Virus record (IMG/VR): IMGVR_UViG_3300017714_004846 | DNA from: an uncultured virus (IMG/VR IMGVR_UViG_3300017714_004846) | Taxonomy: Duplodnaviria; Heunggongvirae; Uroviricota; Caudoviricetes | Direction: 5' to 3' (one strand) | Length of the DNA stretch: 64,000 nucleotides | Part shown: one piece after another, positions 1-64,000 of the stretch | Position numbering within the stretch: position 1 is the stretch's first letter | How the letters are laid out: every line of letters begins with the position of its first letter | Translations under genes and position numbers: made by a program | The notes under the pieces: model-generated | Told to the model about the DNA's origin: nothing | What the model saw: only the letters and a program-made list of their open reading frames with translations | Database searches by the model: none

Positions 1-239
1 CACTGCGAGCCTATTTCTGGGTCTACCGGCGTTCCGGCACTAAAAACGGGGTTTTAGCACCTATGATTTGACCGAAAGGTGTCCAGATTATGTGTTTTTT
101 GACCGATTCGTGTCCGACCCCTTGTGGTTGATAACCACAGTTGGCGTAGATGTTTTATTTGCGTCAGATTGGTCGGTTGAGTGTTCAGGACATAGTTGGA
201 CACTCTGGACATTTTCTGGACAGAGTAAAAAAGAAAGGA

Positions 240-249
240 TTAAATAGGT
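240..249 (+). promoter_or_regulatory. TTAAATAGGT-class TATA-like promoter (MTase operon)
   Basis: ttaaataggt 31 nt before ATG 271; the same motif recurs at fixed spacing before many genes. Confidence 0.75.
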
Positions 250-270
250 AATAACCATATTTGATAAAGC

Positions 271-1170
271 ATGAAGTTAAGAGGTGTCTTAGGTGGATTT
301 GATGGTATCTCTTGTGGGCAAGTAGCCTTACAACGAGCAGGAATAGCCTACGAACAATACTATGCAAGTGAAATAGATACTCACGCTATTAAGGTGACGC
401 AGAATCGTTTCCCAGACACAATTCAATTAGGAAGCATTGCAGATTGGAAAGAGTGGGACTTAGATAATATTGATTTGATTATTGGTGGAAGCCCCTGCCA
501 AGGATTTTCTATGGCGGGCAAGAGGTTAAACTTTGAGGACCCTCGTAGTAGACTGTTTTTTACTTTCGTAGAGATAATCAAGCAATATAAGCCCAAGTAT
601 TTCCTATTGGAAAATGTGGTCATGAAACAAGAGATTCAAGATGCCATTTCCGAAGAATTAGGTGTGCAACCTATCCAGATTAATTCTGGGTTGGTATCGG
701 CACAAAGTAGGGACAGATTATATTGGACCAATATTCCTGTATCGGAAAAACCTGCGGACAAGAACTTGTGTCTGAATAACATTTTGGAAACCGAGATTCC
801 TGCGGACAAAGTTAGAGGTGGTAATTTAGTAGACTTTTATACCGAAAAATTGGGTAAGTTCTCTGTGCGAGGTCTATGTCATATTGGAACGGCGGATGTA
901 AATGGAAGTGATTCACTAAAAAGAGTGTATCATCCTGCTGGTAAGTCACCTACATTAACCACTAATGGTGGAGGCAACCGTGAAGCCAAAATATCTACTT
1001 CGGAATCTACTTGGAGAAAACTAACTCCTTTGGAATACGAGCGACTCCAGACATTGCCAGATAACTATACAGAGGGTATTTCTAATACCCAGAGATACAA
1101 AACTTTGGGTAATGGCTGGACAGTAGATGTGATAGCACATATTTTTTCCTACATGGGTGATGGCAAATGA
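271..1170 (+). CDS. DNA (cytosine-5)-methyltransferase
   Basis: Motif I FDGISCG, IV GGSPCQGFS, VI LENV, VIII QSRDRLY, IX ERLQTLPD, X YKTLGNGW. Confidence 0.95.
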   Translation: MKLRGVLGGFDGISCGQVALQRAGIAYEQYYASEIDTHAIKVTQNRFPDTIQLGSIADWKEWDLDNIDLIIGGSPCQGFSMAGKRLNFEDPRSRLFFTFVEIIKQYKPKYFLLENVVMKQEIQDAISEELGVQPIQINSGLVSAQSRDRLYWTNIPVSEKPADKNLCLNNILETEIPADKVRGGNLVDFYTEKLGKFSVRGLCHIGTADVNGSDSLKRVYHPAGKSPTLTTNGGGNREAKISTSESTWRKLTPLEYERLQTLPDNYTEGISNTQRYKTLGNGWTVDVIAHIFSYMGDGK

Positions 1171-1949
1171 AGTTGAAAGCAGTAATTGGAGGATTTGATG
1201 GAATTTCGTGCGGGCAAGTAGCCTTGGAACGAGCAGGAGTGGAATATGATACCTATTATGCTTCCGAAATTGATACTCATGCCATCAAGGTCACGCAGAA
1301 TCGTTTCCCAGATACAGTGCAGGTTGGTTCAATTACTGATTGGCGGAATTGGGACATAAACAAGGATGATGTAGAACTAATTATTGGAGGTAGTCCGTGT
1401 CAAGGTTTTTCTATGGCTGGAAAGCAACTTAATTTTGAGGACCCACGAAGCCAACTATTTTTTGAATGGTTAGAGATGGTTAGATATTTTGAACCCACAT
1501 ATTTCTTGTTAGAGAATGTGAAAATGAGGCAAGACATCCAAGATGCGATTTCTGCGGAACTGGGTGTGCAACCGATTATGATAAATTCTAATTTGGTTTC
1601 TGCTCAAAACCGCAAGCGATTATACTGGACCAATATTCCTGATGTGGGCCAACCCGAAGACCAGAACATTTCTTTGAGTTCAATTTTAGAAATTCCTGCG
1701 GGTGAGGGAATCACTGTGCGACCCAAGAGTAAGTGTTTAAGAGTAGGAGGTCGTCAAAGTTATGACCGACACGAGTGGGACAGTATTGATAATACACATT
1801 CCCGTAAATTTACAGTGCTGGAGTGTGAAAGATTGCAAACTCTTCCTGATGATTACACTGAAGGCATTTCTAATACCCAGAGATACAAAACTTTGGGCAA
1901 CGGTTGGACTGTAGATGTGATTGCTCACATTTTTGGTTTTATGCAGTAA
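1167..1949 (+). CDS. DNA (cytosine-5)-methyltransferase, tandem paralog with shorter variable region
   Basis: Same motifs (GGSPCQGFS, LENV, QNRKRLY, LGNGW); ATGA overlap with upstream gene. Confidence 0.95.
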   Translation: MKLKAVIGGFDGISCGQVALERAGVEYDTYYASEIDTHAIKVTQNRFPDTVQVGSITDWRNWDINKDDVELIIGGSPCQGFSMAGKQLNFEDPRSQLFFEWLEMVRYFEPTYFLLENVKMRQDIQDAISAELGVQPIMINSNLVSAQNRKRLYWTNIPDVGQPEDQNISLSSILEIPAGEGITVRPKSKCLRVGGRQSYDRHEWDSIDNTHSRKFTVLECERLQTLPDDYTEGISNTQRYKTLGNGWTVDVIAHIFGFMQ

Positions 1950-1950
1950 G

Positions 1951-6476: not shown

Positions 6477-8558
6477 ATGGATGAGTTTGATGCCCAATGG
6501 TTTCGTCCTCGCAGAGTTAAAACTAAGAAGCGCAAGGCAAGACTAAACCCCAGTAGTTTAGCCGGTGGCATTGAGGAAATCCCAGAAATGTTGGGTAAAA
6601 AACGATTAGCGGCTGAAGATAGACCTATGGAAGAACGAATGACTCGTGAACAAGCCGAAAATTTGGCTCAAAAGTTGGAAACTTGGTTAGTCCCTTATGT
6701 AGAGTTCGCAGAGGTTTGTGGAAGTTATCGTCGTGGAAGAGAAGACCCGGGCGATTTGGATGTAGTAGTAATTCTAAAAAATCGGGTCAAGTTGCCCGAA
6801 GTAGTAGAGATGTGGCTGGCAGAGGGTAAAGCCTCGGCGGTGAATTGGGTAGGTGAAAAGAAAACCCAAATGGTTATTGATGGGGTCAAGGTAGATATTA
6901 GAACTACTACTCCTCGTGCTAAAGGCGCAGCATTGCTTTATTTCACTGGACCAGCAGGATACAATATCGGTATCAGGTCTGCTGCTAAAAGAGCAGGTTT
7001 CAAACTAAGTGAATATGGTTTGTTCAACCGAGAAACCAACGAATATATTGCAGGAGCCACTGAAGAAGATATTTATGCGGCACTGGGTAGAAATTATCGT
7101 GCGCCCACAGAACGCAGAGCCGAAGAAAAAATAAGTTTGGCACAAAGATTGAATAGAGAACGACCGAAACCAAAAGGACAAGATTATTCACTACTCACTC
7201 AAGAACAATTAACTGGGATTGGAGGATATTTCTTCAATACCAAAGAAAAAAGGCAAGCATTCATAGATAGGCAGAAAAGAAAAAAGGCCCGAGAGTCAGA
7301 AAAACAAAATCAAACAGGTTTCGGATGGATTGGCCGTGCAGAGAGTTTTAAACCTCCTGCCTCTGCAGTTAGTAATGCCAAGCGTGGTTTAGAATTGCGT
7401 AAAAAATGGGGCCGAGGAGGATTATCACCATCAGAAGCCAAATCTCATGGAATTGATTCTGGAGTCACTCGTGCCAGAAAAATCTCATCTGGAAAGGTTT
7501 CACAACACGATGTTCGCAGAATGAGTGCTTTTAACCGTCATCGCAAGAATTACCGACCCGAAAAGAAAATGCCCGATGGAGGACCCACGGCAGGAACTAT
7601 TGCTTGGTTACTGTGGGGTGGAACTTCAGGTGTGAACTGGGCTAAGAAGAAATCTGCGGCGATGAATGCTGAAGAAGTTGAAGATTATCCAGATTGGGAC
7701 CCCGAAGAATTTGGAATCAAAAATGAAGAAGAGGTTTTTGACGCAGAATTAGTGATGTCAAGGTTCTCTCCAGAAGGATATTCGTTGTATGGAAGGAAAC
7801 TCCATCTTTATGGCCGTCTTCAAGGAGCCATCGTTGGAGGTCAGAAGGGAGTCAGAAACAATCCCGAAAAAACCTATACGGGTAGATATGGTGTTCGCTG
7901 GGGTAGTTTCACTGAAGGAACTCCCGAAAGAGCAATTTTTGATAAAGTAAGTCAAGAAATGAAACCCGAAAGTTTTGAACAATGGATGGATGTGATTTAC
8001 GCAACTAACGACCGTCTAAAAGAACCACAGAAAAAGAAAAGCCGTTTTGGAAGAAAGAAAAAAGCCGAAACCTTTGAGGCCGTAGTTCTCCACCAAGGAA
8101 AACTTCCTGAAGGTGCGGTTGCAAAAGCCATGCTAACTCATGCCATGATGGAAAAGGCCAAAATGTTGGAAACAATTGCACAATTAGAGAATTCTATTTC
8201 TCTGGGATTGATTTCGGAAGAAGAAGTCATGAGAAGTCTGAAAGATAAATTCGGAGCAGAAACCCAAGATTTTGCACCTCGCTATGAAATTCAGATTCGC
8301 ACCAGCCGAGGCAATGTAACCGAAAGAATTCCTGTGAGTGCTGGAATGTTAGTTCGCAGAGTCAGAGAAATTCTGGCAAGAAAGGGCTACTTGTATGCCA
8401 TGGATATTTTTGGAACCGAACCAGCGTTTAATGTTCAAGGGCCGTATGGAATGCAAGTCTATCGTCCCAAGCCAAAACTGATGGCTGTCTACAAGTATGG
8501 AAAATTTGAATCCGGTGAAATGGCTGACCACCTCAATGAAAAATTGGGGTTAAGATGA
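6477..8558 (+). CDS. multidomain (poly)protein containing a minimal family X DNA polymerase domain
   Basis: GSYRRG..GDLDVVV, VDIR, LLYFTG, LSEYGL, EEDIYAALG (aa ~50-215); a further domain AKRGL..GVTRAR..IAWLLWGG; domains bounded by A-E motifs; promoter ttaaataaca 6448-6457. Confidence 0.85.
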   Translation: MDEFDAQWFRPRRVKTKKRKARLNPSSLAGGIEEIPEMLGKKRLAAEDRPMEERMTREQAENLAQKLETWLVPYVEFAEVCGSYRRGREDPGDLDVVVILKNRVKLPEVVEMWLAEGKASAVNWVGEKKTQMVIDGVKVDIRTTTPRAKGAALLYFTGPAGYNIGIRSAAKRAGFKLSEYGLFNRETNEYIAGATEEDIYAALGRNYRAPTERRAEEKISLAQRLNRERPKPKGQDYSLLTQEQLTGIGGYFFNTKEKRQAFIDRQKRKKARESEKQNQTGFGWIGRAESFKPPASAVSNAKRGLELRKKWGRGGLSPSEAKSHGIDSGVTRARKISSGKVSQHDVRRMSAFNRHRKNYRPEKKMPDGGPTAGTIAWLLWGGTSGVNWAKKKSAAMNAEEVEDYPDWDPEEFGIKNEEEVFDAELVMSRFSPEGYSLYGRKLHLYGRLQGAIVGGQKGVRNNPEKTYTGRYGVRWGSFTEGTPERAIFDKVSQEMKPESFEQWMDVIYATNDRLKEPQKKKSRFGRKKKAETFEAVVLHQGKLPEGAVAKAMLTHAMMEKAKMLETIAQLENSISLGLISEEEVMRSLKDKFGAETQDFAPRYEIQIRTSRGNVTERIPVSAGMLVRRVREILARKGYLYAMDIFGTEPAFNVQGPYGMQVYRPKPKLMAVYKYGKFESGEMADHLNEKLGLR

Positions 8559-9007: not shown

Positions 9008-9913
9008 ATGGAATGGTATTCTCGTAAAGAAGTTGCCATTGCAATGTGGAATCGTTTGCGTGACCACGAAGTTAAATGGTTAGTTGATGACCCAGAAAGG
9101 GGTGAATTCGGAATCCGAAACACCAGAGTATCTCGTCAAGATGATGTTTTAACTTGGCTTAAAATTCTGGAGGCTCACAAAAGACCTGTGGGTGTTTATT
9201 TAGGAACTAATATAGTTGATTGGAACCAAATTAAACTACCTCCTCGGTTAAGAGAAGGAGAAAATTGGAATAAAGAGGCCCGGGAAGACTACCGACAACT
9301 TTGGAAACAATATCACGACCCAGAATTCTTGGGTAAGGAAAAGTTCTTGCAAACTTGGAAGGGCAAGATTATGGTGTGGGACATTGACGATGAAAATTTG
9401 GGTCAGGCTTTCACAATTGCTCTGAAGATTCACAACGAATTGAGTGGCAGGGGTTTTAATCCAGAAATGATTTTTTCTGGAGGCAAGGGATTTCACATAA
9501 TTTTGGGATGCGAAGAGGCTGCCGAGTTGTCAGGAGTGACTCTGCGAGATTTTATTCACGAAAGAAACCCTTTGAAAACTTTGGGGAAGCATTATCGGGA
9601 AGCAGTGCAATCAGTGGCTACTATCGCTACGGGAGAACCTTTGTATCGTTATGATATGGCACCAACTCATAGAATGGGGCTCATAAGATGTCCTTATTCT
9701 CTACATCAAAAAACGGGGCTACCTGTTTGGCCCTTAACTTCGGAAGAAATTACTAACCTACAGCAAACTTTAGAAGGTGATAAGATATATGCTCCATTAG
9801 ATATTGCCCAAATTTTATTTTCGTGGACAACTACTGACTGGTGGGACCAAGAAGTTCCGACATCGCCTATGAGTGAAATATGGCTGAGGCACAAGTGGTT
9901 ATTTGGCAAATGA
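9008..9913 (+). CDS. priS: archaeo-eukaryotic primase, catalytic (PriS-like) subunit
   Basis: WDID (DxD), FSGGKGFH, RMGLIRCPYSLHQKTG; promoter ataaatagga 8979-8988, 29 nt upstream. Confidence 0.88.
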   Translation: MEWYSRKEVAIAMWNRLRDHEVKWLVDDPERGEFGIRNTRVSRQDDVLTWLKILEAHKRPVGVYLGTNIVDWNQIKLPPRLREGENWNKEAREDYRQLWKQYHDPEFLGKEKFLQTWKGKIMVWDIDDENLGQAFTIALKIHNELSGRGFNPEMIFSGGKGFHIILGCEEAAELSGVTLRDFIHERNPLKTLGKHYREAVQSVATIATGEPLYRYDMAPTHRMGLIRCPYSLHQKTGLPVWPLTSEEITNLQQTLEGDKIYAPLDIAQILFSWTTTDWWDQEVPTSPMSEIWLRHKWLFGK

Positions 9914-17760: not shown

Positions 17761-18089
17761 AAGCAAAGTGGACAGTCGTGAGCGATGTCTATTCCGAAAA
17801 TTCTTTCGGTATCGTGGACGAAGAAAAGAATGTGACTTTGACCTTTAATGTGGAAGTGGGTGAACCTAAACCCGATGGAAAGCAAAGAGGATGGTTTGAG
17901 TGGCATAATTCTTACGGTGGATGGTATGCCGAGGGCGGTTTATGGTTTCAGAACAACACTTTAGTTGATTACGATGGTGTGTTTTCACTGGCTGCGGAAA
18001 TTTTGGAGAAACTCCACGAGGCTGGCTTTGATGTCAAGGATATGGCAGAAACCTGCGCCCCAGAATTGAATTTGGAGGGTGCAGAATGA
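17757..18089 (+). CDS. hypothetical protein
   Basis: ATGA-coupled; AEGGLWF..LVDYDGVFSL. Confidence 0.75.
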   Translation: MKAKWTVVSDVYSENSFGIVDEEKNVTLTFNVEVGEPKPDGKQRGWFEWHNSYGGWYAEGGLWFQNNTLVDYDGVFSLAAEILEKLHEAGFDVKDMAETCAPELNLEGAE

Positions 18090-18568
18090 AATATTTAGTT
18101 CCTGTGTTGTTGCTAATGATGATGCTATCTGGATGTCTAAATTCGGGTGCAACTACTTCTGAAGACCCAGTGGTGCCTGAAATGGAAACAATCATAGAAA
18201 GCGAAAACCATAGTCATCAATTTATGAACATCCAACCCATGAGTGTAGCCAATAATACTGCCTATGAAGTAAATGGTAGCGTATGGGTCATGGCAAATTG
18301 GACTTGGGTATTTCATGAACCTGTGCTATGGGAACAAGGAAATATGACGATGCAAATTATGGTGGGTAATGAATCTAATAATACTGTGGTTTGGGAGTCT
18401 ACGCCAGCCAACAATACGGGCTCTTTCAATCTCTCTTTGGATTCTCTTAATACCACGCTCACGCTACGAGTGCAAGCCACGGGCAGTGATAATCCCACAG
18501 ATAATCTTCCTGCGGACTGGTTTCATGTGCATTGGTATGTAGAAGTTATGCGCCCAGTTAGTGCCTAA
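18086..18568 (+). CDS. putative lipoprotein (archaeal lipobox)
   Basis: MKYLVPVLLLMMMLSGCL signal with LSGC; several N-x-T/S sequons. Confidence 0.75.
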   Translation: MKYLVPVLLLMMMLSGCLNSGATTSEDPVVPEMETIIESENHSHQFMNIQPMSVANNTAYEVNGSVWVMANWTWVFHEPVLWEQGNMTMQIMVGNESNNTVVWESTPANNTGSFNLSLDSLNTTLTLRVQATGSDNPTDNLPADWFHVHWYVEVMRPVSA

Positions 18569-25811: not shown

Positions 25812-25917
25812 AAATAATATAAGGCTTCCCTGCTATTTCAATTTAACTTGAAGGGATGTGTTAAATAGGTAGACCAAGTAGTAAGCAATACGAACCCCAT
25901 TAGCGGGAGTGATTATT

Positions 25918-27761: not shown

Positions 27762-27827
27762 ACAATTATTTTGTGTCATCTGCTATTTAAGATTCTTGTT
27801 AAATAGGTCCCAACGAGTAAAATTATC

Positions 27828-43660: not shown

Positions 43661-43711
43661 AGTGTTAAATAGGTAATACCCATAGTGGTAATTAACCAAC
43701 AGGTGTTAATT

Positions 43712-44125
43712 ATGGAACAAGAAATTATGATTGCTGCAGGTGGTATTGGTGTCATCGCTGCGGGCTACGCTGCCCGTTGGTGGAAGAAGAACCGAAGCAC
43801 TGTGGTAGAAGAAATTGCCGAAAAAATTGAAGATGTGATTGAAGATGCAACAGGTCAAGAAGTTGATTTGAACGCAGCAATTGAAGAAGTAGTTGAGGCT
43901 GCTGAAGATGTTGTTGAAGATGTTGCTGATGCAGTTGAAGAAGGTGCAGACCTTGATGAAATCAAGGATGTAGTTAGCGATTCCGCTGCAGAAGAAATTG
44001 CAGAATTGAAGGAAGACCTCGCTGCATTGACTGTGGCTGAACTTAAAAACCGACTCAAAGATGCAGGATTGCCTGTTTCGGGTAATAAATTGACTCTTAT
44101 CAAGCGTTTGGAGGCTTCAGAATGA
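43712..44125 (+). CDS. membrane-anchored acidic protein with C-terminal SAP domain
   Basis: N-terminal TM; LTVAELKNRLKDAGLPVSGNKLTLIKRL; promoter 43665-43674, SD AGGTG. Confidence 0.85.
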   Translation: MEQEIMIAAGGIGVIAAGYAARWWKKNRSTVVEEIAEKIEDVIEDATGQEVDLNAAIEEVVEAAEDVVEDVADAVEEGADLDEIKDVVSDSAAEEIAELKEDLAALTVAELKNRLKDAGLPVSGNKLTLIKRLEASE

Positions 44126-50200: not shown

Positions 50201-50757
50201 TAGGAACAGACTTGCAATATGTGGGGCAAAACTTTACTCACGATACCCGAGATTGTAGCGAAGGCCCAGCAAACAACCCCTACAACACATTAGATTCTAT
50301 GCGACAGAAAACCATGGCTCAATTCGCTTTGGGAGATTGTTTAGAGTCAGTAGATAATGTAGACCAATCATCCCGATTGATTAACCGACACTTGATTCGT
50401 GATATGAGGGGAAATCTTCGGGCTTACGGGCAACAAAAGGTTCGTTGTCCTAAATGTGGTGCTAAGTATCGCCGTCCACCCATTTCGGGTCAGTGCATGA
50501 CTATTTTGGAAACTAAAGAAAACCCATTTTCGGGGGAAATGGAAGATATTATGTGTGATGGTAGGATTATCCTTACCGTGACTCATGGCTCAGTGGCTAA
50601 ATATGATAAATTGATGGCAGAATTAGTAGACCGCTACGGAGCAGATGGTTATACCGAGGGATTATATCAACAAGTATCTAAATGGGTCAAAGAAACCTTT
50701 GAGGACAAGAAGATTAAATCTCAAAGCAGATTGCCTTTGCCTGATGACCCTGATTAA
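47260..50757 (+). CDS. polC: DNA polymerase D large (catalytic) subunit DP2
   Basis: AILTEG..VAPLEG, FAGPIRSAGGTGQALSV, GGFRLRYGRSR, IGGRMGKPE, FRDGTIRFD, APHTS, AAKRRNCDGDID, MDAPL, CPKC Zn finger. Confidence 0.97.
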   Translation: MAWSHDEYIERLKTDADHAYEIAGQARAKGLDPKIEVEIPQAFDLADRCQKLLDFLHARKTAEQIRELTQHHDGNREMVALDIAKIVTAESWLYGVKKKCEACGGEKVVQKGRRKVSCDACEGTGMILEYSEDIDKPWQETLEKFSEVEKSLRDETLVALCIYHGVCAGLAILTEGILVAPLEGVVSCRLITNGDSSKSLAINFAGPIRSAGGTGQALSVLIGDIIRREFNLQPPQITFEEAERYKEEVSKYARGLQYRPSNPQLEVIAYNCPVYIDGEGVGNEVSGQRDLPRVPTNKVREGMLLVMCEGLVLKAPKILKYTEALGFEEWDWLKQFTGGKGDEKAKKASIEPNYKYLGDVLAGRPIFGQPMSVGGFRLRYGRSRLAGLATTAMHPASMRAVGSFLIIGTQMKYERPGKATVVTPCDSIEGPYVQFNDGSARRIQSLEDLEDAIPTEEEWNVAKVWDIGELLVPVGEFLENNHPLAPSPYVSEWHELVLGKEELTYPENFSTALEQSQKFGVPMAPDYVAHFSDIKSIDLQELLSGIKVDDSGAQVEPEFLDTIYRLNIDVDANRYLSGAKSALLLNLVESKSQLNFDSDASANSLDVIRNFYNFPIENPISIRIGGRMGKPEGSKLREMKPPIHCNFPVGFNVGSLRLLRTAADQDEDVELGWRMCDVCDTETIWGVCCGAETRFVGVKWDNIDIKELYESSLEQAQQSDGKIKGVKGVTSSEKTPERPLKGILRFKHGISTFRDGTIRFDMVDITMTHFRPREIGMTLEQARELGYDCNSIDDICELRPQDVVLPLNCSEKILATANYMDDLLEKMYGLDAYYNCKEINDLIGHYVMGIAPHTSGAILARIIGFANIKGHYGHHYYHAAKRRNCDGDIDAVLLLLDGLINFSKKFLPGHRGGQMDAPLILTTKIVPSEIDKEALNVEIVDHYPLEFYELTRGIIDEDGDLVPAPAKAALDAGVVIVESVLGTDLQYVGQNFTHDTRDCSEGPANNPYNTLDSMRQKTMAQFALGDCLESVDNVDQSSRLINRHLIRDMRGNLRAYGQQKVRCPKCGAKYRRPPISGQCMTILETKENPFSGEMEDIMCDGRIILTVTHGSVAKYDKLMAELVDRYGADGYTEGLYQQVSKWVKETFEDKKIKSQSRLPLPDDPD

Positions 50758-52664: not shown

Positions 52665-54449
52665 TCAGACAACTGTGACATTTCCAAATACTTGGACCGC
52701 AACACTACCAACAGGAGTTGCATCTCCCAAAACATACAAAGTAAAAGGTTCCAAAATGGGAACGGTAAAGCCAGTTCCTACGGTTCCTCCTCCGATAACA
52801 ACATCTGCCGCTCCACCTCCAGAAGTAAGGGAAACTGAGATAACAGGGATGCTTCCATCATTGATGGGGACAAAAGTTGCAGTAGCACCTGTGGCTTGGC
52901 TTAAGTTAAGTGCGCCATCGCTCAGAACATATGATTCTTCCGCAAGAATTTGAGTTTTTCCTACGGTATCCTCCGTGAACAATTCTGCGCCGTTGGCGAG
53001 TGGGTTGCCTACACGAGTTCCAGCGATGATACTACTAAATCCATTGGCAGTGATGTTTCCAGTTCCTCCGGTTCCTCCAGAAGTATCATTAACAATTATA
53101 TCTCCATCAGAGACAGTAAGATTACTGCTTGCATAGGTAAAGTTGGAAGTTCCTGCGAAAACATCACCCGCACCATATACTTGAATATCACCTACAGCAC
53201 CACCGGGAAGTAATCCTGCTCCTCCTGTGGAAGTAATGGTAGTTCCTGAAATAGATAAACCTGTTCCCGCAGTAAGATAAGTTAATTTACCAGCACTATC
53301 GTCCCAGAAAACTATTCTATCAGCACCGGGGTCTACGCCACTAATTGCTCCTGAAGACACCGACAAAATATCGGCAGCAGAAGTTGTGATGGTGACAGTA
53401 TCGCCAGTAGCGTAATTGGGGATATTTAGCACTCCGCTATTTAATGTCGCTGCGCCTGATGTCCCTGAAGTGGTTAATGATGCAAATGGGGATGCAGTAA
53501 TCTGAGTGGTTCCATCGGGCCAAGTAATTCCTCCTGTCGCACTTGAGGCATCAAAAATAAATGTATTATTTCCCAGAACTGTTAATTGTTGATTTGTAGT
53601 AACACTCAAAGTAATGGATTTGGTCTGGGAAGACATATTAATTAATGGGTCATTACCTGTTAATCCAGTAGTCATGGTTATCCCACCTGATGCTTCAGAG
53701 AATTGGAAGGAACTGCTTCCGCCGATGGTATCTGCACCTGTGCCAACTGCTATTTGGTCTGCGGCGATAGTTCCTGCAATGCCACCCGATGCTGCTTGGA
53801 AGGTTGCATTACCGCTCCCATCCTTCGTGAGAACATGGCCTGTTGTAGCCCCTGATACTGCGGTAAGTGCATCAATAGCCGCTTGAGCCGTTGATGCGCC
53901 TGTTCCTCCATCAAGAATTGCTAAATCAGTAATCCCTGTTATTGAACCTCCTGTGATAGCAACCAAGTTTGCATTTTGTGTCGCTATCGTTCCAAGTCCA
54001 AGACTTGCTCTTGCGGTTGCGCCCGACTCATATGCAAATACACCTGCGCCTGTTGCTACAATAAACTGCCCATCCGAAGCGGGCGCACCAAGCGTGTTCA
54101 AATCCTCAAGAACGCCTGTGGTTTGAACGGTGACGGTATCTGTGGCTGAAGCCACAGAAGTAAGACCTCCGCCTCCAGCAATTGTCACATTGTTGGCATC
54201 AGTAATGGTTTGTTGAGGACCAGAATTGCCTCTCAAAATCCATGAGTTCATACCACCACTTCCTCCTCCAGAAGATGAAATCTTAATTTGATTAGGTGAT
54301 GTGCCAGTAAGAGTAATATTTGCTCCTGCGACTAAAACAATATCTGGGTTTCCTGCTACGGAAGTGGCTCCTGAAACGGTTCCACCATCAGCAGTTAGTC
54401 TGAAACTGTTTGAACCTGCGGCTCCTGTTCCCGAATAATCGTTAGCCAC
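52665..54449 (-). CDS. Gly/Thr/Ala-rich fibre or spike protein
   Basis: Fibre-type segments ARASLGLGTIATQNAN..ITGGSITGITDLAILDGGTGASTA, LTAGTGLSISGTTI; probable GTG start 54449. Confidence 0.8.
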   Translation of the reverse strand: MANDYSGTGAAGSNSFRLTADGGTVSGATSVAGNPDIVLVAGANITLTGTSPNQIKISSSGGGSGGMNSWILRGNSGPQQTITDANNVTIAGGGGLTSVASATDTVTVQTTGVLEDLNTLGAPASDGQFIVATGAGVFAYESGATARASLGLGTIATQNANLVAITGGSITGITDLAILDGGTGASTAQAAIDALTAVSGATTGHVLTKDGSGNATFQAASGGIAGTIAADQIAVGTGADTIGGSSSFQFSEASGGITMTTGLTGNDPLINMSSQTKSITLSVTTNQQLTVLGNNTFIFDASSATGGITWPDGTTQITASPFASLTTSGTSGAATLNSGVLNIPNYATGDTVTITTSAADILSVSSGAISGVDPGADRIVFWDDSAGKLTYLTAGTGLSISGTTITSTGGAGLLPGGAVGDIQVYGAGDVFAGTSNFTYASSNLTVSDGDIIVNDTSGGTGGTGNITANGFSSIIAGTRVGNPLANGAELFTEDTVGKTQILAEESYVLSDGALNLSQATGATATFVPINDGSIPVISVSLTSGGGAADVVIGGGTVGTGFTVPILEPFTLYVLGDATPVGSVAVQVFGNVTVV

Positions 54450-54450
54450 A

Positions 54451-55407
54451 TCAAACCCCGCCTTCAAGTGCTTGTCTGCCAGTATCTGTGAATCCAGTTT
54501 GTTGTTCACTCCAACCTACAAAGGCGGCTTGCACAACTCCTGTAAGGGTATCTGCACCATCGGTGCCAGTGTTGATAATACGGAATACAATTTGTTTTTC
54601 TACTACCAGAGGCATTTCAAATTGCCATTGGTCAGATTGTGGGACTACTACACTCCATTGGAAATCGTCCCACTCAAAAATCAATTCTCCGTCTACCCAA
54701 ATTTGGTATTTAACTCCTGCTGTGCCACTTCCCGAAGTAGTGGGCTCTGTGTGTCCAAAACGAGAAATCAAGTAAAGTTCATTCTTGCGTCCTGCTTCCG
54801 TAGAAGTATTACCTGCTCCCGATGGTGTGTAAGTTTTTCCAGTAAATGACCCACCGCCTGAGCGGGCTCCTGTGGGAGTTCCTACAGATGATGGAGTAAA
54901 TGCTTGACTACCAACTGAAGAGGATGTGACTTCAGGAAAGGTTGGCACAGTGGAACTGGGTAGGGTGCTTTCCGCAGGGGCTCCATCTACCCATGTCTGC
55001 GTTCCTAAAACTCTGGCATCATTAACATTGATAACTACAGCATCAATAAATTCTCCAATAGCAAGATTGCCGCCACCCAATCCACTGAGATTGACGGCTT
55101 GGCGTTGAATTACATTCGCAGAGTTGCTTTTGGGGACTAAATGCCATGGATAGTTTTGAGCATTGTAATTATTGGGGTGAAGAGCCAAATTTTCTACCGC
55201 AGGACGAACTGGACGCTTGTAGGTAGAAGGGTCTATTCCCACACGCTGAGGTGCAGTAGCCAAAGAAGTTTCAGTGCTGTAAGATGAATAAGGCACTGGG
55301 GTGGAATTCACAGCCTCTCCTTTTTGAGAATAGCCTGTTTGAAACGCCTTCTTGCGATAGGCTCGCTTAACATTGCGGATGTTGTCATTTGTGTCACCAG
55401 ACGGCAT
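54451..55407 (-). CDS. beta-rich probable structural protein
   Basis: Alternating strands YQIWVDG, PLVVEKQIVFRII; promoter ttaaataaca 55439-55448 (minus), SD AGGTGA. Confidence 0.75.
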   Translation of the reverse strand: MPSGDTNDNIRNVKRAYRKKAFQTGYSQKGEAVNSTPVPYSSYSTETSLATAPQRVGIDPSTYKRPVRPAVENLALHPNNYNAQNYPWHLVPKSNSANVIQRQAVNLSGLGGGNLAIGEFIDAVVINVNDARVLGTQTWVDGAPAESTLPSSTVPTFPEVTSSSVGSQAFTPSSVGTPTGARSGGGSFTGKTYTPSGAGNTSTEAGRKNELYLISRFGHTEPTTSGSGTAGVKYQIWVDGELIFEWDDFQWSVVVPQSDQWQFEMPLVVEKQIVFRIINTGTDGADTLTGVVQAAFVGWSEQQTGFTDTGRQALEGGV

Positions 55408-55421: not shown

Positions 55422-56174
55422 TTAATCCTTGGCCTTCTTGTTATTTAAGGTTAAGCCAAGGTCGGGGGCCAATTTTTGTGCTTCCTTTTGTTCTTTCCAA
55501 TATTCGGTGGATACTCTCAAATACCAATCCCATGTGCTGGTGTCCAGCCCACGGCTACGCAATAATTGTCTACGGAACCACTCTACATTGTCTACTGTGA
55601 TTTCAATTCCCAATCTCATAAGTTGGTTGCAAATCAGAGCATCGGAGCCAGAAAATAACCAATATTGCACGAAAACTTCGGCCATAGGTTTGTCCATATC
55701 AAATTCTATATTGGGTAATGAATCAACAAAAGTCCAATCATTGAGCATCACATATCGGACATCCCAAGTTTGAAATGGTGGCACATAAACATTGGGTTCT
55801 AACAAATATCCATAATTGGAAGTCAAATCTTTAGGATAGGGACTGGCATCACCAGAAATACCCCAAGATTTGATATTTTCAGGGTTTTGATAATAATGGG
55901 TGGTATCTACTACAATTTGCACGAAACCATTCGGGCGGTAATTGGAAACTTTAATGGGTGATAAACCTTTAGAAACAATGTTAGAGCAAACTCCGGGTGT
56001 AGAGCCGAAATCATCAATTACCACAAAAAAATCTTCTCTTACCAGTGCGGTTTCAGTGATATTATCTCCATAGCCTCCTGTGAAGATAGAAAATTGGTCG
56101 CCGGGTTGTGGCAAATTGCTTCCAGTGGCATCGGGGGTCAGCGTCCAAAGATAAATTTGTTTAGTAATCATCAA
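55422..56174 (-). CDS. probable structural protein, paralog A2
   Basis: Shares G.YG.N, VDTT.Y..NP, GISG.ASP, YV.P.QTW.V.Y, LF.GSDAL with 56171..56947. Confidence 0.8.
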   Translation of the reverse strand: MMITKQIYLWTLTPDATGSNLPQPGDQFSIFTGGYGDNITETALVREDFFVVIDDFGSTPGVCSNIVSKGLSPIKVSNYRPNGFVQIVVDTTHYYQNPENIKSWGISGDASPYPKDLTSNYGYLLEPNVYVPPFQTWDVRYVMLNDWTFVDSLPNIEFDMDKPMAEVFVQYWLFSGSDALICNQLMRLGIEITVDNVEWFRRQLLRSRGLDTSTWDWYLRVSTEYWKEQKEAQKLAPDLGLTLNNKKAKD

Positions 56175-56947
56175 ATAAACCTCCGTGGCACAGTTTTTCG
56201 GACTGTTTCCAATTCTTCTTGGTCGGAAATATCCTTTTCCAGTTTCATACGAATTAACATTCTTTTGTGAGCCATCACATTTTCTATATTTACGGGAATA
56301 TTTTGCTCCAATAAGTGATTGGCTACCAGTGCATCACTACCATCAAATAAAACATATTCAAAATAGCAACGAGGAATAAAACAATCTCCTTCATCCAGAG
56401 GAATTGAAGCATTAACTGTGTAATCCCAATTTAAAATGGCTGAACCTCCTTCTTTGTCATAAACTGTGAGTGAGGGTGTCAAATCATTAAGGGTGTAATA
56501 GACTCCCCAAGTTTGACCCGGCAAAACATAAACAGGAGTGGCACTTTGATAATAACTGGGGCTCAATGCCTGTGGAACATATCTTCTTCCTCCTGATGGT
56601 CCAAAAGGAGAAGCATTTCCCGAAATTCCTTGGCTCACAGAACGGTCGGGATTCAAAAAATACTGAGTAGTATCTACCCAAATATTTGCAGTTGCGGCTG
56701 GAGGCCATAATGAAATCTCATCAATAACAATAAATTGTGTGGCTTTAACATAGCCCGGGATGTCTAAATTATTTCCATAATCTCCTACGAAAACATCTAC
56801 CTTGGCCCTATTTCCTGCGGTCCAAGCGGGAATCGCAGGTTGAGAACTTAACACAGGGTCTAAATTAAGAACTACTGCTCCCTGATTATTGGCATAATCC
56901 AAATCTGGAACTACGGCTCTCCATTCATATGCTTGTCGCCGCATCAT
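56171..56947 (-). CDS. probable structural protein, paralog A1
   Basis: Paralog of 55422..56174; promoter ttcaaatagca 56967-56977 (minus). Confidence 0.8.
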   Translation of the reverse strand: MMRRQAYEWRAVVPDLDYANNQGAVVLNLDPVLSSQPAIPAWTAGNRAKVDVFVGDYGNNLDIPGYVKATQFIVIDEISLWPPAATANIWVDTTQYFLNPDRSVSQGISGNASPFGPSGGRRYVPQALSPSYYQSATPVYVLPGQTWGVYYTLNDLTPSLTVYDKEGGSAILNWDYTVNASIPLDEGDCFIPRCYFEYVLFDGSDALVANHLLEQNIPVNIENVMAHKRMLIRMKLEKDISDQEELETVRKTVPRRFI

Positions 56948-56985
56948 AATTAGAAATAGTCCTTGTTGCTATTTGAACCTTCGGT

Positions 56986-57513
56986 TCAATAAACAGTCTT
57001 TTGAATTTCAATCTCACCAATCAAAGTAATCTTAACTCTAACGGTAGCAACATCAGTTCCGCCAGTTACCATATCGTGAGCGGCAATAGCGATATTATTT
57101 TCTACTGAAATTTGTAGTGGTTGCTGATAAAGCACCAAAACTGGGCTGGTGAAAGCAATATAGCGTTGATTGGTAGGTGCGGGCATCAACAAGCGTTGCA
57201 CAGCAATATCATTAGTGGGAATGCGGTTGCCTCCAACTAAGATTTCCATATCAAAATTTGTGTATGTGCCAAAAGGAGCGGTATTTGGAGCCACATAATT
57301 GTAAAAATAAGGATTGGTCACGGTTTCGGTTTTCAGTTGGTTGCCATCAGCATCCAAAGGAACAATATCAATAGCAAAACCATGAATTCTGACATCTTCA
57401 TTGTTGGCTTGGTTAGTATAAACCGTAGCAATGTTAGTGGTGCCAGCACCAGCAGGAACAGCAAAATCATGCACTGTGGTCAAAATTTTGGGTTCGGGGT
57501 CTTGATTTACCAA
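56986..57513 (-). CDS. all-beta protein, paralog B2 (jelly-roll candidate)
   Basis: NQDP.P...TTVHDF.V, TNQANNE.VR, PV.VL.QQPLQ, GTDVA..R.KI.LI.E..IQK shared with 57524..58012; SD GAGGTGA. Confidence 0.8.
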   Translation of the reverse strand: MVNQDPEPKILTTVHDFAVPAGAGTTNIATVYTNQANNEDVRIHGFAIDIVPLDADGNQLKTETVTNPYFYNYVAPNTAPFGTYTNFDMEILVGGNRIPTNDIAVQRLLMPAPTNQRYIAFTSPVLVLYQQPLQISVENNIAIAAHDMVTGGTDVATVRVKITLIGEIEIQKTVY

Positions 57514-57523
57514 TTAAATCACC

Positions 57524-58012
57524 TCAAGCAGTTCTACGAGCAGCAATCTTCTGGATAGACAATTCAGAGATTAGTGAAATCTTACAGCGAAGTTTAGCAA
57601 CATCCGTTCCAGATGGGTATTGGAAAGCAGCAATTCCAGAATTCGCAGTGATAGTGACTTGAAGTGGTTGCTGGAAAAGAACAATAACTGGGACGGTGAA
57701 ACTCATGGTCTGGTCTACTTGTCCGTAAATCCAAGCAATATCAAAAGAATTTGAGGGAACATTGTTAGGTCCAACACTCATAGTCATGGTAAAATCAGTG
57801 GGCATGGTAAATTTCGGGTCCGTAGTGGAAACCAACTGATTATTTGAACTATCTAAGAGGGTAAAGTCTACGGCAACTGCGTAGACTCGCACTTCTTCGT
57901 TGTTTGCTTGATTGGTAAAAATGGATACGGCATTTTGCGTTCCACTGCTTGTTGCGACATCAAAATCGTGAACAGTGGTATAAACTTCTGGTTGTGGGTC
58001 TTGATTAGCCAT
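57524..58012 (-). CDS. all-beta protein, paralog B1 (jelly-roll candidate)
   Basis: Paralog of 56986..57513; promoter ttgaaatagca 58049-58059 (minus), SD GGAGTGA. Confidence 0.8.
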   Translation of the reverse strand: MANQDPQPEVYTTVHDFDVATSSGTQNAVSIFTNQANNEEVRVYAVAVDFTLLDSSNNQLVSTTDPKFTMPTDFTMTMSVGPNNVPSNSFDIAWIYGQVDQTMSFTVPVIVLFQQPLQVTITANSGIAAFQYPSGTDVAKLRCKISLISELSIQKIAARRTA

Positions 58013-58289: not shown

Positions 58290-58320
58290 GTTAATACTTC
58301 CGTGCTTCTGCTAAATAAAC

Positions 58321-59328: not shown

Positions 59329-60507
59329 TTACTGCTCGGTATCTCTGATGGCTTTAACATTGGGATGTCGGAGGCTTCCAGAATTAGTGTATTCAAAGAA
59401 TTTCACCGTAGCCATTTTTCCTACTATATCATCTCGGTCAGCCCACATTTGTTCACGAGTAGACCTATTCCCCATCGGAGAGGCGGTAAAGGTTCTTCCA
59501 CTATCATCATTGAGTTCCAAAATCCAAACAGGTGTGCCAGCATAGTCGCCTTGACCTTCTGTGTAGCCTACAATTTTAAATTCATCATCCTGAAACGCCT
59601 TAACCTTAAGTAGATTGCTACTACGAGTCGGTCCTAATTTGTAGGGAGAATTAATGTTCCTCAACATCATGCCTTCAAAGCCTTGTTCCGTCAATGCTGC
59701 GTGTGTGGTTTCCACTTCTGCAGGACTGTTAATGCGGAAATTTTCTACATATCTAAGGTTGGGACGGTCTTCCGCAGGAACTTGAGATAGTAATTCTACT
59801 ATCAAACGATAACGGTTAGCGTAAGTCATATCTGTTGGATTTCCTGTGTCATCAAGGATAATCAAATCATAAACATAAAAACCCATACCTTCTAAGTTTT
59901 CTAAATCGGTAGCCGTGTAATTCTTTACCTTTTTTCTCATTAAACCATTAGCAGTTTCAAAATCAATACCATCTTCTTTATCAACATCTGAATGATACAC
60001 TTCGCCATCCAAAATTATGTTAGAGGGAAGGTTGATAGCAATAATTTGTTCCCGAACAGCGTTCATTCCATCCCACAATTTACCGCTTCTACTCATCAAT
60101 ACCACTTGGTCAGGGGTGGGTCTGGAGGCTACACCTCTGGCACCATCAAATTTTCGTTGTCCAATCATAGGCCATTCACACCATTTAGTGCCATTTTGGG
60201 TATCCTTATATTTTTTAGGTAGCATGGGGCGAATCACAACTTGATTCAAAGCATCGGCTTGAGTTAAAACATATCCCATATCCATTTTGCTTAACCATTT
60301 ACTGCGGGCTTCAAAATTGGCTTGCTCACGAATGGTTCTACCTTGTTTTCCAGCAGTGATTAATGAGGGTGCTGTGGTAGTGGTTGTGCCATCAACGAGT
60401 CCATGTTTGGTGATGATTTCCCAGTTATTTCCAGAGGAGGGTCGGGTAATAATTTGCCATTCACGAAGTCTACCGCCGTCTTCCTTATAGAGTTTATCTA
60501 ATACCAT
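59329..60507 (-). CDS. lig: ATP-dependent DNA ligase (compact, virus-type)
   Basis: QRKFDGAR (KxDG), LDGEVY, FYVYDL, EGMMLR, LLKVK, LRHP; promoter ttaaataggt 60527-60536 (minus). Confidence 0.93.
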   Translation of the reverse strand: MVLDKLYKEDGGRLREWQIITRPSSGNNWEIITKHGLVDGTTTTTAPSLITAGKQGRTIREQANFEARSKWLSKMDMGYVLTQADALNQVVIRPMLPKKYKDTQNGTKWCEWPMIGQRKFDGARGVASRPTPDQVVLMSRSGKLWDGMNAVREQIIAINLPSNIILDGEVYHSDVDKEDGIDFETANGLMRKKVKNYTATDLENLEGMGFYVYDLIILDDTGNPTDMTYANRYRLIVELLSQVPAEDRPNLRYVENFRINSPAEVETTHAALTEQGFEGMMLRNINSPYKLGPTRSSNLLKVKAFQDDEFKIVGYTEGQGDYAGTPVWILELNDDSGRTFTASPMGNRSTREQMWADRDDIVGKMATVKFFEYTNSGSLRHPNVKAIRDTEQ

Positions 60508-61727: not shown

Positions 61728-62705
61728 TTACTTCTTGGAATTGCTCCAAGCCCAAACACCGGCTAAACCGATGGCTGCGGTAATCATAGCAATGGTAGCC
61801 TTGCTGAATTTTTCGGGAACTTCATTGAGTGAGTCCACCCCACGAGCCGCATAAATTGTTTCTTCAACATCAGGGCGGTTCATGTAATAGTCCATAGCAA
61901 CAGGGTCATCCATTTCTTGGAATTCTACGATAGAGTCAATAACATCTTCTGCAAATTCATAAGGGAAGGCAACTTCCCACTCATCAGCGTTAGCACCCTT
62001 GGTCACAAATACATATCCATCACGAATATCATCGTCCATAACTTCTTCCAGATAATTTTTGATAGGAGTGTCTACTACGAAAACCTCTCGTCCTTTAGAA
62101 TCTTCAAAGGTGTTATTAACCGATTCAATAACATCATCAAATTCAGCATCCATATCTTCTACGGCCTCATTTAATGCTTCTTGGTCGGCTTTTCCTGCCG
62201 CCATAGGAATTGCGACTTCTTCGGGACTATCGCTGGCAATCGCCTTTTTGAGTCGGCTCAGAGCGGAACCACCTTCTGCACGACCCGCCCAGACATAATC
62301 ATGAGCAGGAAGTGAAGGAACAGCGTCAGTAGCGGAAACAATTTCTCCGCCAGTGTGTTGTCCAATAATTCTACCATCGCCTACTGGGTCAGTAGATGGT
62401 TCGGGAACTAAGAGTTCACCAGAAGATTCTGCTGGTTCGGAGGCTTCGGCTGCAAAGGCAGCAGGGGCTACTTCTTCAGCAGCATACACAGGAAGAGTTT
62501 TGCCCAATTGTTCACAAATTTGGGCTGCTTCTTGAGCCCCAATCATGCTCTGGCACTTGTGTTCTTTGCCAGTGTCGGGGTTGTGATGAAAACCAATAAC
62601 TTGATAACGAGAGCCACCGCCTTTGGTCTTGGTAGCAATGATGTCGCTAACTTCACACTCAACTTTGCGTTTGAGTCCTGTGGAATAGATTTCTCGCATT
62701 ACCAT
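61728..62705 (-). CDS. multidomain acidic protein with small basic N-terminal beta domain and C-terminal TM
   Basis: YAAE, FAAE, GRAE, MDAE borders; N-domain loosely resembles Cren7/DUF5679-type folds (inference). Confidence 0.75.
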   Translation of the reverse strand: MVMREIYSTGLKRKVECEVSDIIATKTKGGGSRYQVIGFHHNPDTGKEHKCQSMIGAQEAAQICEQLGKTLPVYAAEEVAPAAFAAEASEPAESSGELLVPEPSTDPVGDGRIIGQHTGGEIVSATDAVPSLPAHDYVWAGRAEGGSALSRLKKAIASDSPEEVAIPMAAGKADQEALNEAVEDMDAEFDDVIESVNNTFEDSKGREVFVVDTPIKNYLEEVMDDDIRDGYVFVTKGANADEWEVAFPYEFAEDVIDSIVEFQEMDDPVAMDYYMNRPDVEETIYAARGVDSLNEVPEKFSKATIAMITAAIGLAGVWAWSNSKK

Positions 62706-62743
62706 GACTATCACTTGTTCTTTTTACTATTTAGGTTTTGGCT

Positions 62744-63292
62744 TTAGAATCCGAAAGTATCTCTTTGGAAAGAACTTCTCACGGAAACGGGTTGTTGTCC
62801 CATGGCACTACCATAAATTCCTGTGGTATTGGTATTAGGAGAGGCACTTGGGCTCAAAAAGAAGGTGTTTAATCCACCATTAGATTCAGCCCCAAATTTT
62901 TGTTGAGCCTCTTCTGCAGCCTGTGTATCTTCAGCCTCTACCAATTCAGATTCTAATCTTTCCATTTCGGCTTCCGCAGTTTCCAGAATTTCTTCGTATT
63001 TTTCACTCTCTTCATTGGCTTCTAATCCACGGAGCAATCCGCCCAAACCAAATCCTAATGGGAAGAGTCCCATCACAGAAAAAACCATGGGTCGGTAATC
63101 ATATTCACCTTCGGAGGTTAAAAGTTGGTTATCTTGAACAAATTTATCTACTCCCCAAAGTCCTAAACTACAGATTCCCAGTAGGAGAGGGAAACCCACA
63201 GAGGGGTTGCGAAGTTGGTCACGAATAGGAGTAGATTGAACTGATTCTTCCTCAGCGTCAAAAACAGATGAGCGAAGTTGAGCAAAATCCAT
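62744..63292 (-). CDS. two-TM membrane protein with coiled coil
   Basis: FDAE near N-terminus, FGAE after the coil; promoter ttaaataaca 63323-63332 (minus). Confidence 0.8.
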   Translation of the reverse strand: MDFAQLRSSVFDAEEESVQSTPIRDQLRNPSVGFPLLLGICSLGLWGVDKFVQDNQLLTSEGEYDYRPMVFSVMGLFPLGFGLGGLLRGLEANEESEKYEEILETAEAEMERLESELVEAEDTQAAEEAQQKFGAESNGGLNTFFLSPSASPNTNTTGIYGSAMGQQPVSVRSSFQRDTFGF

Positions 63293-63377
63293 GGGTAACC
63301 CTCAAGTATAATTGGTGCGTTTTGTTATTTAAGTTTCTCGGTCACCAACCTTTGATTCGTAAATCAAATTAGGGTAA

Positions 63378-63764
63378 TCAGTTAGCACCGACCGCTGCAC
63401 CACTATAGTTCTGGCCGAAAGACGGATATGATGCCGAAACGCTCATAACATAGGCTGAAAGGTCTGGACCCCACATAATTTGCTCATAAGGACCAGACAT
63501 AGAATGGTTAAGAGTTTGTCCAACGGCTTGTCCATTCATGATTCCTCTTTCGGTGGAAACTTTTTGAATGTCCCCATAATTATTAACAATCTGTTGGTCT
63601 GTGGCAGGGTCTACTAATTCTTCGGTGTCAGCACCAAAGGATTCTTTAGAAACACGGTATCCCGCTCTGGCAGCATAGGCAATGACAAACGAAGCCAAAG
63701 CAAGGCTTCCGATGTTAAGCAGTGCGTCTTTTAGAGCCAAGATATACACCTCAGTTATCGCCAA
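63378..63764 (-). CDS. membrane protein
   Basis: N-terminal TM then FGAD; true start possibly TTG 63740 after GAGGTG. Confidence 0.7.
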   Translation of the reverse strand: MAITEVYILALKDALLNIGSLALASFVIAYAARAGYRVSKESFGADTEELVDPATDQQIVNNYGDIQKVSTERGIMNGQAVGQTLNHSMSGPYEQIMWGPDLSAYVMSVSASYPSFGQNYSGAAVGAN

Positions 63765-64000
63765 AGACCATTCCGATTGCAGCAGAGGCTACAATTGCAC
63801 CAGCAGAGAGTAGCATGAATCCCAGACCAATCTTTGCTCCTGTTTCAACAGGCTTTGCAAGTTCTACTTGGTCAGCAAACATAATGTCGTTTGGTGGAGA
63901 AGAAGCCGCACTCAAGCCAGAATCATTTTCCCACTGAACGATAGCGTTAGTGAGAGATTCAGCGTGGTGTGCAACCTTAGCGTCACCCATGCCTCGGAAT
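63751..64000 (-). CDS. C-terminally TM-anchored protein, possibly 5-prime truncated by window edge
   Basis: Frame open to window end; C-terminal IGLGFMLLSAGAIVASAAIGMV. Confidence 0.65.
   Translation of the reverse strand, partial: FRGMGDAKVAHHAESLTNAIVQWENDSGLSAASSPPNDIMFADQVELAKPVETGAKIGLGFMLLSAGAIVASAAIGMVFGDN

Follow-up and report, generated by a model that had tools for sequence, protein, structure and literature searches.

A virus lineage that carries DNA polymerase D and candidate jelly-roll capsid genes, with a probable host among the Poseidoniales

Can a virus carry DNA polymerase D (PolD), an enzyme associated with archaeal cells? One review, in its Table 1 and conclusion, lists PolD in archaeal cells only and associates the double-psi-barrel line with cellular life and not with viruses (PMC7281927), and another names families A, B and C as the polymerases common in DNA viruses (PMC11348598). 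The question is raised by a 64,000-nucleotide stretch of the uncultured virus record IMGVR_UViG_3300017714_004846 (hereafter the window), which encodes an intact PolD large subunit, DP2. The initial annotation of this DNA proposed a cell-like replisome carried by either a large virus or an extrachromosomal element, and both the gene content of the window and its relatives bear that proposal out. The evidence favours a virus over a non-viral element. We are strongly confident that the window is viral DNA, and the likely explanation of the data as a whole is a linear, PolD-encoding virus with a jelly-roll, membrane-containing virion and probably a Poseidoniales host.

PolD in the window and in related virus records

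The DP2 gene (47260..50757, + strand) matches three Pfam domains and scores 978 bits against TIGR00354 (cut-off 702). Its product retains the N-terminal, central and catalytic domains, an intact CDGDxD motif, the two catalytic aspartates and the zinc finger at the C terminus, and is predicted to be an active polymerase subunit. Cellular PolD of the Thermoplasmatota shares this full domain set, the two aspartates, the zinc finger and a DP1 partner; it differs in that the viral DP2 is at most 47% identical to it, reads CDGDID where the cellular enzyme reads CDGDED, and lies ~90 kb away from its DP1 gene. That 47% is the best value among 251 Thermoplasmatota genomes, whereas the 120 best database matches range from 55 to 96% identity. 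Forty-six of those 120 were aligned and 14 entered the first tree, and they group with the five virus DP2s whose genomic context we read. A lineage-specific, DnaJ-like zinc-ribbon insert near the N terminus (amino acids [aa] ~95-160) is present in 51 of 51 full-length virus-type DP2 rows and in none of 49 cellular rows, and could serve as a marker to tell viral from cellular DP2. Virus-type DP2s also occur in metagenome-assembled genomes (MAGs) labelled Woesearchaeota, Thorarchaeota and Bacteroidota (L039; P0262, P0263, P0108). Three unrelated labels on one DP2 clade suggest misbinning, and in bins from the sea DP2 is unsafe as a sign of cellular origin. Scanning viral and genome contigs with a single DP2 sequence yielded no locus. 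DP2 and the candidate capsid protein discussed below were both without a match among 50,697 GenBank phage records, in keeping with the undescribed lineage that had been supposed, and we found no report of a PolD-encoding virus in a literature search whose coverage excluded most subscription journals.

The window is 42% GC and 95-96% coding, with 81 open reading frames (ORFs) of at least 60 aa. Twelve of the 71 ORFs scanned passed a Pfam cut-off and most lack annotation. They are not singletons: 50 of the 81 have a relative in at least one related virus record, and 31 have one in G001, G002 and G003 together. These three records (160, 150 and 166 kb, respectively) were retrieved with a window orphan (57524-58012) as the query, and a fourth, G004 (123 kb), with an alignment of the candidate capsid family. 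All four encode an intact DP2 (57-59% identity), and the gene order of the window is collinear with every one of them (|rho| 0.61-0.72). The flank and the genome ends, to which the initial annotation had pointed as tests, agree with a viral element. A further assembly, L246 (142 kb), shares the coordinates of the window with 19 differences in 11,254 bases and extends 9.3 kb beyond it; this extension holds a capsid-like pair (6 kb past the window), an AAA ATPase and a glycosyltransferase, and no housekeeping operons. Inverted repeats close two of the relatives, one of 99 bp and exact in G001, the other of ~3,460 bp at 99.4% in G003, and the termini of both genomes lie close to the same genes. 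The longest contigs that bear family members reach 170-201 kb, and the window probably represents ~40% of a linear double-stranded DNA (dsDNA) virus genome of ~150-200 kb with inverted terminal repeats.

Window DNA reached at least 0.97 in 14 of 24 listed sequencing runs; six are labelled viral metagenome. With possible source studies set aside, two virome studies remain (X7, X9). Run X7 covers the window evenly, in 30 of 30 bins, and the small-share runs X16-X20 were not counted as habitat evidence.

Further replication genes accompany DP2. DP1, with its OB fold and phosphoesterase domain, is encoded by G001, G002 and G003; it was not found in the shorter G004, which lacks the end region that carries DP1 and TBP in G002. 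The three longest records each encode DP2, DP1, PCNA, TBP, TFB, an MCM-like helicase and a PriS-like primase, with TBP present in three of the four records and PCNA in all four. G003 adds a class II ribonucleotide reductase, an ERCC4 nuclease, a 5'-3' exonuclease, a dCMP deaminase, Fpg and UvdE. Our Pfam scans took in 71 ORFs of the window and 109 + 132 of G001-G003, and the PHROG scans 71 + 108; for G001-G003 they set aside ORFs below 75-120 aa, homologues of ORFs already covered and five ORFs that straddled tile borders. RNA polymerase, HK97 and portal families were not found in the Pfam scans of G001-G003, and PolB (PF00136) and Terminase_6N (PF03237) matched none of the four records, while the positive control for each matched 5 of 14 genomes.

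From these genes we infer that the genome would be copied by viral PolD (DP1 plus DP2) on viral PCNA, assisted by the MCM-like helicase, the PriS-like primase, the 5'-3' exonuclease, the ligase and the ribonucleotide reductase, with clamp loader and RNA polymerase borrowed from the host. Because a protein-primed PolB is not present, the linear termini probably fold into hairpins or else are rebuilt by recombination via the resolvase-like, ERCC4 and Cas4-like nucleases. Several observations weigh against this picture of a complete viral genome and replisome. CheckV puts the completeness of G001-G003 at just 53-65% and classes G004 as a provirus. The partners that the initial annotation expected beyond the window, DP1, PCNA, TBP and a packaging-type ATPase, did appear, but in relatives rather than on the contig to which the window belongs (142 kb, 73 kb of it covered); RFC, also expected, did not, and the scans of G001-G003 gave no match to the RFC, GINS or PriL families.

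A jelly-roll protein family and a HerA-type ATPase

The initial annotation recognised no HK97 capsid, portal or terminase. HK97 capsid and portal are indeed missing from all ORFs covered by our Pfam and PHROG scans, the window included, but capsid-like genes at 55422-58012 had been overlooked. They include members of a jelly-roll family with six paralogues per genome in G001-G003. Two window ORFs, at 55422 and 56171 (55422..56947, - strand), are single-jelly-roll members of this candidate major capsid family (family profile E 2e-41 and 3e-25) and are probably minor capsid or vertex proteins. Another two paralogues, ~60% identical to one another, form an adjacent pair that is present in G001-G004 and L246. 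At 71-79% identity among G001-G003, this pair ranks among the most conserved genes, and its conservation points to the major virion proteins. The family as a whole comprises 1,673 clusters at 90% identity and 333 at 50%.

A model of the most conserved paralogue (96-row alignment; predicted local distance difference test [pLDDT] 87) shows a beta-barrel followed by a pair of helices at the C terminus. VP4 of Sulfolobus polyhedral virus 1 (SPV1) was its top match in all three PDB structure searches: at Z 8.4 in the first (root-mean-square deviation [rmsd] 3.0, 124 aligned; next row Z 6.7, 48,161 chains), at Z 8.8 in the second (rmsd 3.4, 135 aligned) and at E 3e-3 in Foldseek, where P23-77 VP17 and SH1 followed. 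XepA, HHIV-2, P23-77 VP17 and SH1 ranked lower, with Z values of 6.3 for HHIV-2 and 5.0-5.3 for P23-77 and HCIV-1 and without a sequence match. The structural neighbours of SPV1 VP4 given in the published account, namely XepA, a cupin (5uqp) and VP17 (PMC8812541), are all among the matches of our model. Distant members of the family (P0298-P0358) carry Gly/Thr-rich inserts of 100-300 aa in two loops, which are reminiscent of the capsomer towers described in an earlier study (PMC6414509); these members also point to more divergent viruses of the same group. We considered whether the long family members (380-470 aa) are fused double jelly rolls and rejected the idea: each has one barrel, lengthened by large inserts in its loops, and the family therefore lends no support to the origin of double jelly rolls by fusion.

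All four records also encode a HerA-type ATPase (61-69% conserved) with Walker A and B motifs, an arginine finger, an SQRP motif, a C-terminal hydrophobic anchor and HerA matches down to E 3e-11. The only PHROG labelled terminase, phrog_2666, matches this same ATPase, which we predict packages the DNA. A GET3/ArsA ATPase (G003 113253-114446, L021:13253-14446; TIGR00345 201 bits, cut-off 135) likewise has homologues in G001, G002 and G004. A crude hydropathy rule assigns a single C-terminal anchor to 50 of 668 viral ORFs but to 1 of 358 from cells. Tail-anchor-like proteins, the HerA ATPase among them, are thus in excess alongside the viral GET3/ArsA ATPase. Assembly would then proceed with the two adjacent single-jelly-roll proteins forming an icosahedral shell over an inner membrane, the HerA-type ATPase filling that shell with DNA and the GET3-like ATPase inserting tail-anchored proteins; the virus is most likely lytic and tailless. 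We regard a Singelaviria-like, probably membrane-containing virion as fairly likely on the strength of the structural match and the ATPase.

To the Helvetiavirae of the Singelaviria (SH1, HHIV-2, HCIV-1, P23-77) the lineage is linked by the adjacent single-jelly-roll pair, an FtsK/HerA ATPase, many membrane proteins and a prokaryotic host (PMC8812541, PMC6414509). Two gene-content hallmarks of that group, the pair and the FtsK-HerA ATPase, are present here, and shared ancestry of the capsid proteins is possible; the differences are six paralogues instead of two, capsid proteins without detectable sequence similarity, and a PolD replisome, TBP and TFB of its own. SH1 has linear ends with inverted repeats, as do G001 and G003, and Helvetiavirae genomes are ~17-31 kb compared with ~160 kb here. 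The Portogloboviridae contribute the best structural match in SPV1 VP4, but SPV1 has one capsid gene and no packaging ATPase (PMC8812541), a small genome and a Sulfolobus host. With the Magrovirales (Aoguangviridae, Apasviridae, Krittikaviridae) and Adrikavirales (Satyavativiridae) the likely host order is shared, and Aoguangviridae encode primase, PCNA, MCM, ligase and TFB, as here (PMC10768690). Those orders have an HK97 capsid, portal and terminase, genomes of 87-100 kb, and PolB or no polymerase (PMC13108676, PMC10768690, PMC11706807), whereas the present lineage has PolD and jelly rolls, with no PolB or Terminase_6N in four records. By annotation, then, the terminase, HK97/portal and PolB that mark the Magrovirales appear to be missing from the records examined. 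By analogy, the virus would work like a magrovirus in its replication autonomy and like a helvetiavirus in its morphogenesis. Nucleocytoviricota and the Borgs of Methanoperedens have large linear genomes, terminal repeats, near-complete replication sets, paralogue expansions and PolB; Nucleocytoviricota further have double-jelly-roll capsids and their own RNA polymerase, neither of which was found here. Charybdis elements, which are circles of ~4 kb (bioRxiv 2025.08.03.668216), were considered and set aside as unrelated.

The structural argument for a Singelaviria-like virion has clear counterweights. Z scores of 8.4-8.8 barely exceed those of unrelated beta-sandwiches (typical best 7-8), TM-scores are 0.3-0.4, Foldseek against PDB gave nothing under E 0.001, and no virion has been seen. 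It is conceivable, if unlikely, that this is a true virus with some other particle, enveloped, spindle-shaped or built from an independent jelly-roll capsid, and unrelated to the Singelaviria. The sequence of the capsid family yields chance matches only in PDB (best E 0.23), the scans of G001-G003 contain no match to PHROG or Pfam capsid families, and a 160-kb genome would demand a far larger shell than those of known members; yet the same viral group tops three structure searches, and relatives have the tower-like loop inserts. In BFVD the model found beta-sandwiches without names.

We judge it improbable that the window belongs to a linear element without virions, Borg-like or a giant linear plasmid of Poseidoniales, spread by vesicles or cell contact, in which the jelly rolls serve at the surface or in storage. 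Such an element could equally have terminal repeats, a GET3-like ATPase, glycosyltransferases and numerous membrane proteins, the fold match is modest, and vesicles co-purify with viral fractions. It accounts poorly, however, for a conserved adjacent jelly-roll pair whose best match is SPV1 VP4 and which, with the HerA ATPase, makes up the helvetiavirus module, and it sits uneasily with the lack of metabolic operons, a coding density of 95-96% and DNA in virome runs. Although DP1, DP2, PCNA, MCM, TBP and TFB are cellular hallmarks and virus-type DP2s turn up under three MAG labels, an origin from the chromosome of some reduced or unknown archaeon, or from a chimeric assembly, is exceedingly improbable and already largely refuted: Pfam scans of the terminally repeated records contain no RNA polymerase, ribosomal operon or metabolic core, five assemblies share the gene order, X7 coverage is even, and the labels look like misbinning.

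Host affiliation and promoters

The linear, PolD-encoding virus that we favour was traced towards its host by comparison with the 251 Thermoplasmatota genomes, 34 of which are rhodopsin-positive. We take the clade that holds all 34 to be the Poseidoniales, on the presumption that such rhodopsins mark the marine groups of this phylum. Ten host-type DP2s were used, nine from rhodopsin-positive genomes and the tenth from the genome with the top TFB match. The viral DP2 clade (support 100) is sister to the rhodopsin clade with a Shimodaira-Hasegawa-like approximate likelihood ratio test (SH-aLRT) value of 99 (LG+G4, 53/102 rows), and holds the same position with an SH-aLRT of 97 under a C20 mixture (35 rows). 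An insertion at the C-terminal zinc finger gives a signal that is independent of branch lengths: all 52 virus-type rows have it at 19-21 aa, and 9 of the 10 host-type rows at 18-24 aa, against 1-2 aa at that site in 35 of 40 rows from other archaea (5 unmatched). All 34 rhodopsin genomes fall within the top 53 DP1 matches, and 32 of the 34 within the top 48 TFB matches. The tRNA-Pro of G003 has full-length matches of 85-87% in 3 of 3 rhodopsin genomes and in 0 of 2 others.

These sequence comparisons make it very likely that the host belongs to the Poseidoniales (Marine Group II), the affiliation that the initial annotation had thought probable. Other results pull the other way. The best raw DP2 identity lies in other Thermoplasmatota and not in rhodopsin genomes; support in the DP2 tree consists of SH-aLRT values without bootstraps, and both sister branches are long; in the TFB tree, which carries warnings of long branches, the viral clade falls within neither cellular group and no donor emerges; and the tRNA-Ala of G001 has no full-length match in five of five genomes. 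The sister position of DP2 implies an old capture: a virus would have acquired PolD a single time, from a cell of the stem lineage of the host order, and the enzyme would have evolved with the virus thereafter. A related marine group may be the present host. A virus lineage that has vertically kept PolD would close the gap between cellular PolD and viral polymerases, and offers a mesophilic, divergent PolD for assay.

The promoter-like word TTAAATAGGT occurs 15 times in the window against 0.1 times in 10 shuffles. TATA-like boxes are dispersed from 240 to 60536, some with GT after them and others with CA or TC, and lie 27-33 nt upstream of the ATG in 28 of 88 window ORFs, at exactly 29 nt in 24 of the 28; the DP2 start at 47260, for instance, is 29 nt past a box at 47231. 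Given archaeal promoter geometry, this spacing would imply leaderless transcripts. The strict box precedes 15/69, 40/175, 54/164, 38/208 and 7/139 viral ORFs but 1/344 host-type ORFs. The suggestion of element-specific promoters holds insofar as the boxes are enriched in the element; they are nonetheless near-consensus archaeal TATA boxes, and host-type genomes use a looser box that peaks at the same spacing. A seemingly unusual TATA box, TT[GC]AA[AG], lies 29-30 nt upstream of the ATG in the host-type genomes G175 and G041 (L226-L238).

In the window, GT boxes precede DNA-metabolism genes and non-GT boxes structural or membrane genes (7/0 versus 0/5, p 0.001), and the split recurs in G001-G003 (p 0.016, 0.0003 and 0.002). 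We treat two temporal promoter classes as a lead. In such a programme the host RNA polymerase would read leaderless genes from strong TATA boxes, with viral TBP and TFB probably switching between a GT class of replication genes and a non-GT class of structural and membrane genes. Unfavourable to it are the failure of the split in G004 (p = 1), class labels that were assigned after the pattern had been seen, in genomes that are related, and RNA runs X15, X16 and X18 that consist of short scattered contigs at a depth of 2-5 and do not prove expression.

It is on balance plausible that all this describes a lineage of high rank among the archaeal viruses of the sea, abundant but so far unrecognised: a "giant" Singelaviria branch with genomes of 150-200 kb, a host-lineage PolD replisome taken before the Poseidoniales diversified, a TBP/TFB temporal programme and a viral GET3 membrane pathway. 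Were this so, it would be an archaeal parallel to the Nucleocytoviricota arising from small jelly-roll viruses, and would extend single-jelly-roll dsDNA viruses several-fold in genome size. The Poseidoniales virus families described in PMC13108676, PMC10768690 and PMC11706807 are all tailed, and the lineage would add a tailless group, with >1,600 capsid-like clusters at 90%, to one of the most abundant marine archaeal orders.

Further genes of the window and its relatives

Among the other replication and transcription genes named by the initial annotation, three are clear, as DP2 is: TFB (19304..20263, +; PF00382 E 2e-41; 52-56% identity to G001-G003), an ATP-dependent DNA ligase (59329..60507, -; PF01068 E 3e-25, phrog_114 E 2e-72) and an XPD/DinG-like SF2 helicase (27828..30041, +; PF13307, phrog_2488 E 3e-68). 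Two are weak, the divergent MCM-like helicase (40994..42670, +; phrog_10371 E 2e-10, PDB MCM6 E 2.5e-5; 46-51% to G001-G003) and the divergent PriS-like primase (9008..9913, +; PF01896 E 5e-4 and NF001641 E 1e-6, both sub-cut-off; 33-36% to its G001-G003 counterparts). The supposed PolX is a minimal palm-thumb stretch (aa 52-223; PF14791, PF14792) of a composite 693-aa protein (6477..8558, +), with the nucleotidyltransferase motif retained in three of four tested homologues. This protein and another at 44313-46779 shuffle short domains across genomes (PolX, phrog_2859, phrog_14910, DUF5872), and their G003 homologue includes a Cu/Zn superoxide dismutase.

The window further encodes two tandem C5 cytosine methyltransferases (271..1949, +; PF00145, E 5e-43 and 2e-41), a Holliday-junction-resolvase-like endonuclease (20578..21201, +; PF10107 E 7e-18; 66-72% to G001-G003 over ~110 aa), a Cas4-like exonuclease (25909..27033, +; phrog_1990 E 4e-8), a PP2C-like phosphatase (27030..27779, -; PF07228 E 6e-7), a deoxynucleoside monophosphate kinase (30067..30618, +; phrog_139 E 1e-25) and a SAP-domain protein (43685..44125, +; PF02037 E 6e-9). 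The last is 61% identical over 33 aa to a sequence from a rhodopsin-bearing genome, the sole window match in 400 kb of cellular DNA. A lipoprotein-like ORF with an LSGC lipobox seen in translation (18086..18568, +) has ~30% homologues in G001 and G003. No tRNA gene was found in the window and an Rfam scan of it gave no match; the relatives carry one tRNA each, Ala-TGC in G001 (L011:312-385) and Pro-GGG in G003 (L022:6957-7034). The sole match to a ribosomal family (PF01780, 24.8 bits, cut-off 21.9) concerns a zinc ribbon of 46 aa in a 436-aa protein and was read as spurious.

Beside the capsid-like paralogues, two small beta-sandwich proteins (56986..58012, -; low-confidence model at pLDDT 59 with jelly-roll matches) are candidate penton or cement proteins. 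This pair (56986/57524) matches viral clusters of the ESM Atlas at 0.97, and the two jelly-roll families of the window show no mutual profile alignment (probability 0.4%). Composition and position, with no family match, mark a Gly/Thr-rich product (52665..54509, -) as a candidate spike or fibre, and a conserved gene of the structural block (54451..55407, -; 44-46% to G001-G003; no family match) is a candidate virion protein. In G001, a 1,325-aa protein with an AAA lid match (55227-59204; L009:15227-19204), kept in G002 and G003 and encoded beside an HExxH protein of the structural block, is possibly an assembly chaperone.

Three more observations concern other proteins of the window. The 34895-35731 protein (-), which is 46-59% conserved, has a C-terminal anchor and no family match, and its E...HxHP...SxxD pattern resembles, we presume, a JAB/MPN metalloprotease. 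The 1,046-aa product of 37036-40176 (-) contains Pro-Gly repeats, with repeat DNA at 39179-39683, and these repeats account for the rise in GC at 38-40 kb. Finally, a short (P.P)INW motif opens nine unrelated orphan ORFs (1979, 2848, 12727, 13630, 21278, 24774, 25215, 46776 and 50992); the pattern occurs in 10 of the 81 window ORFs and in 0-3 per relative, and is possibly a sorting or packaging tag particular to the lineage.

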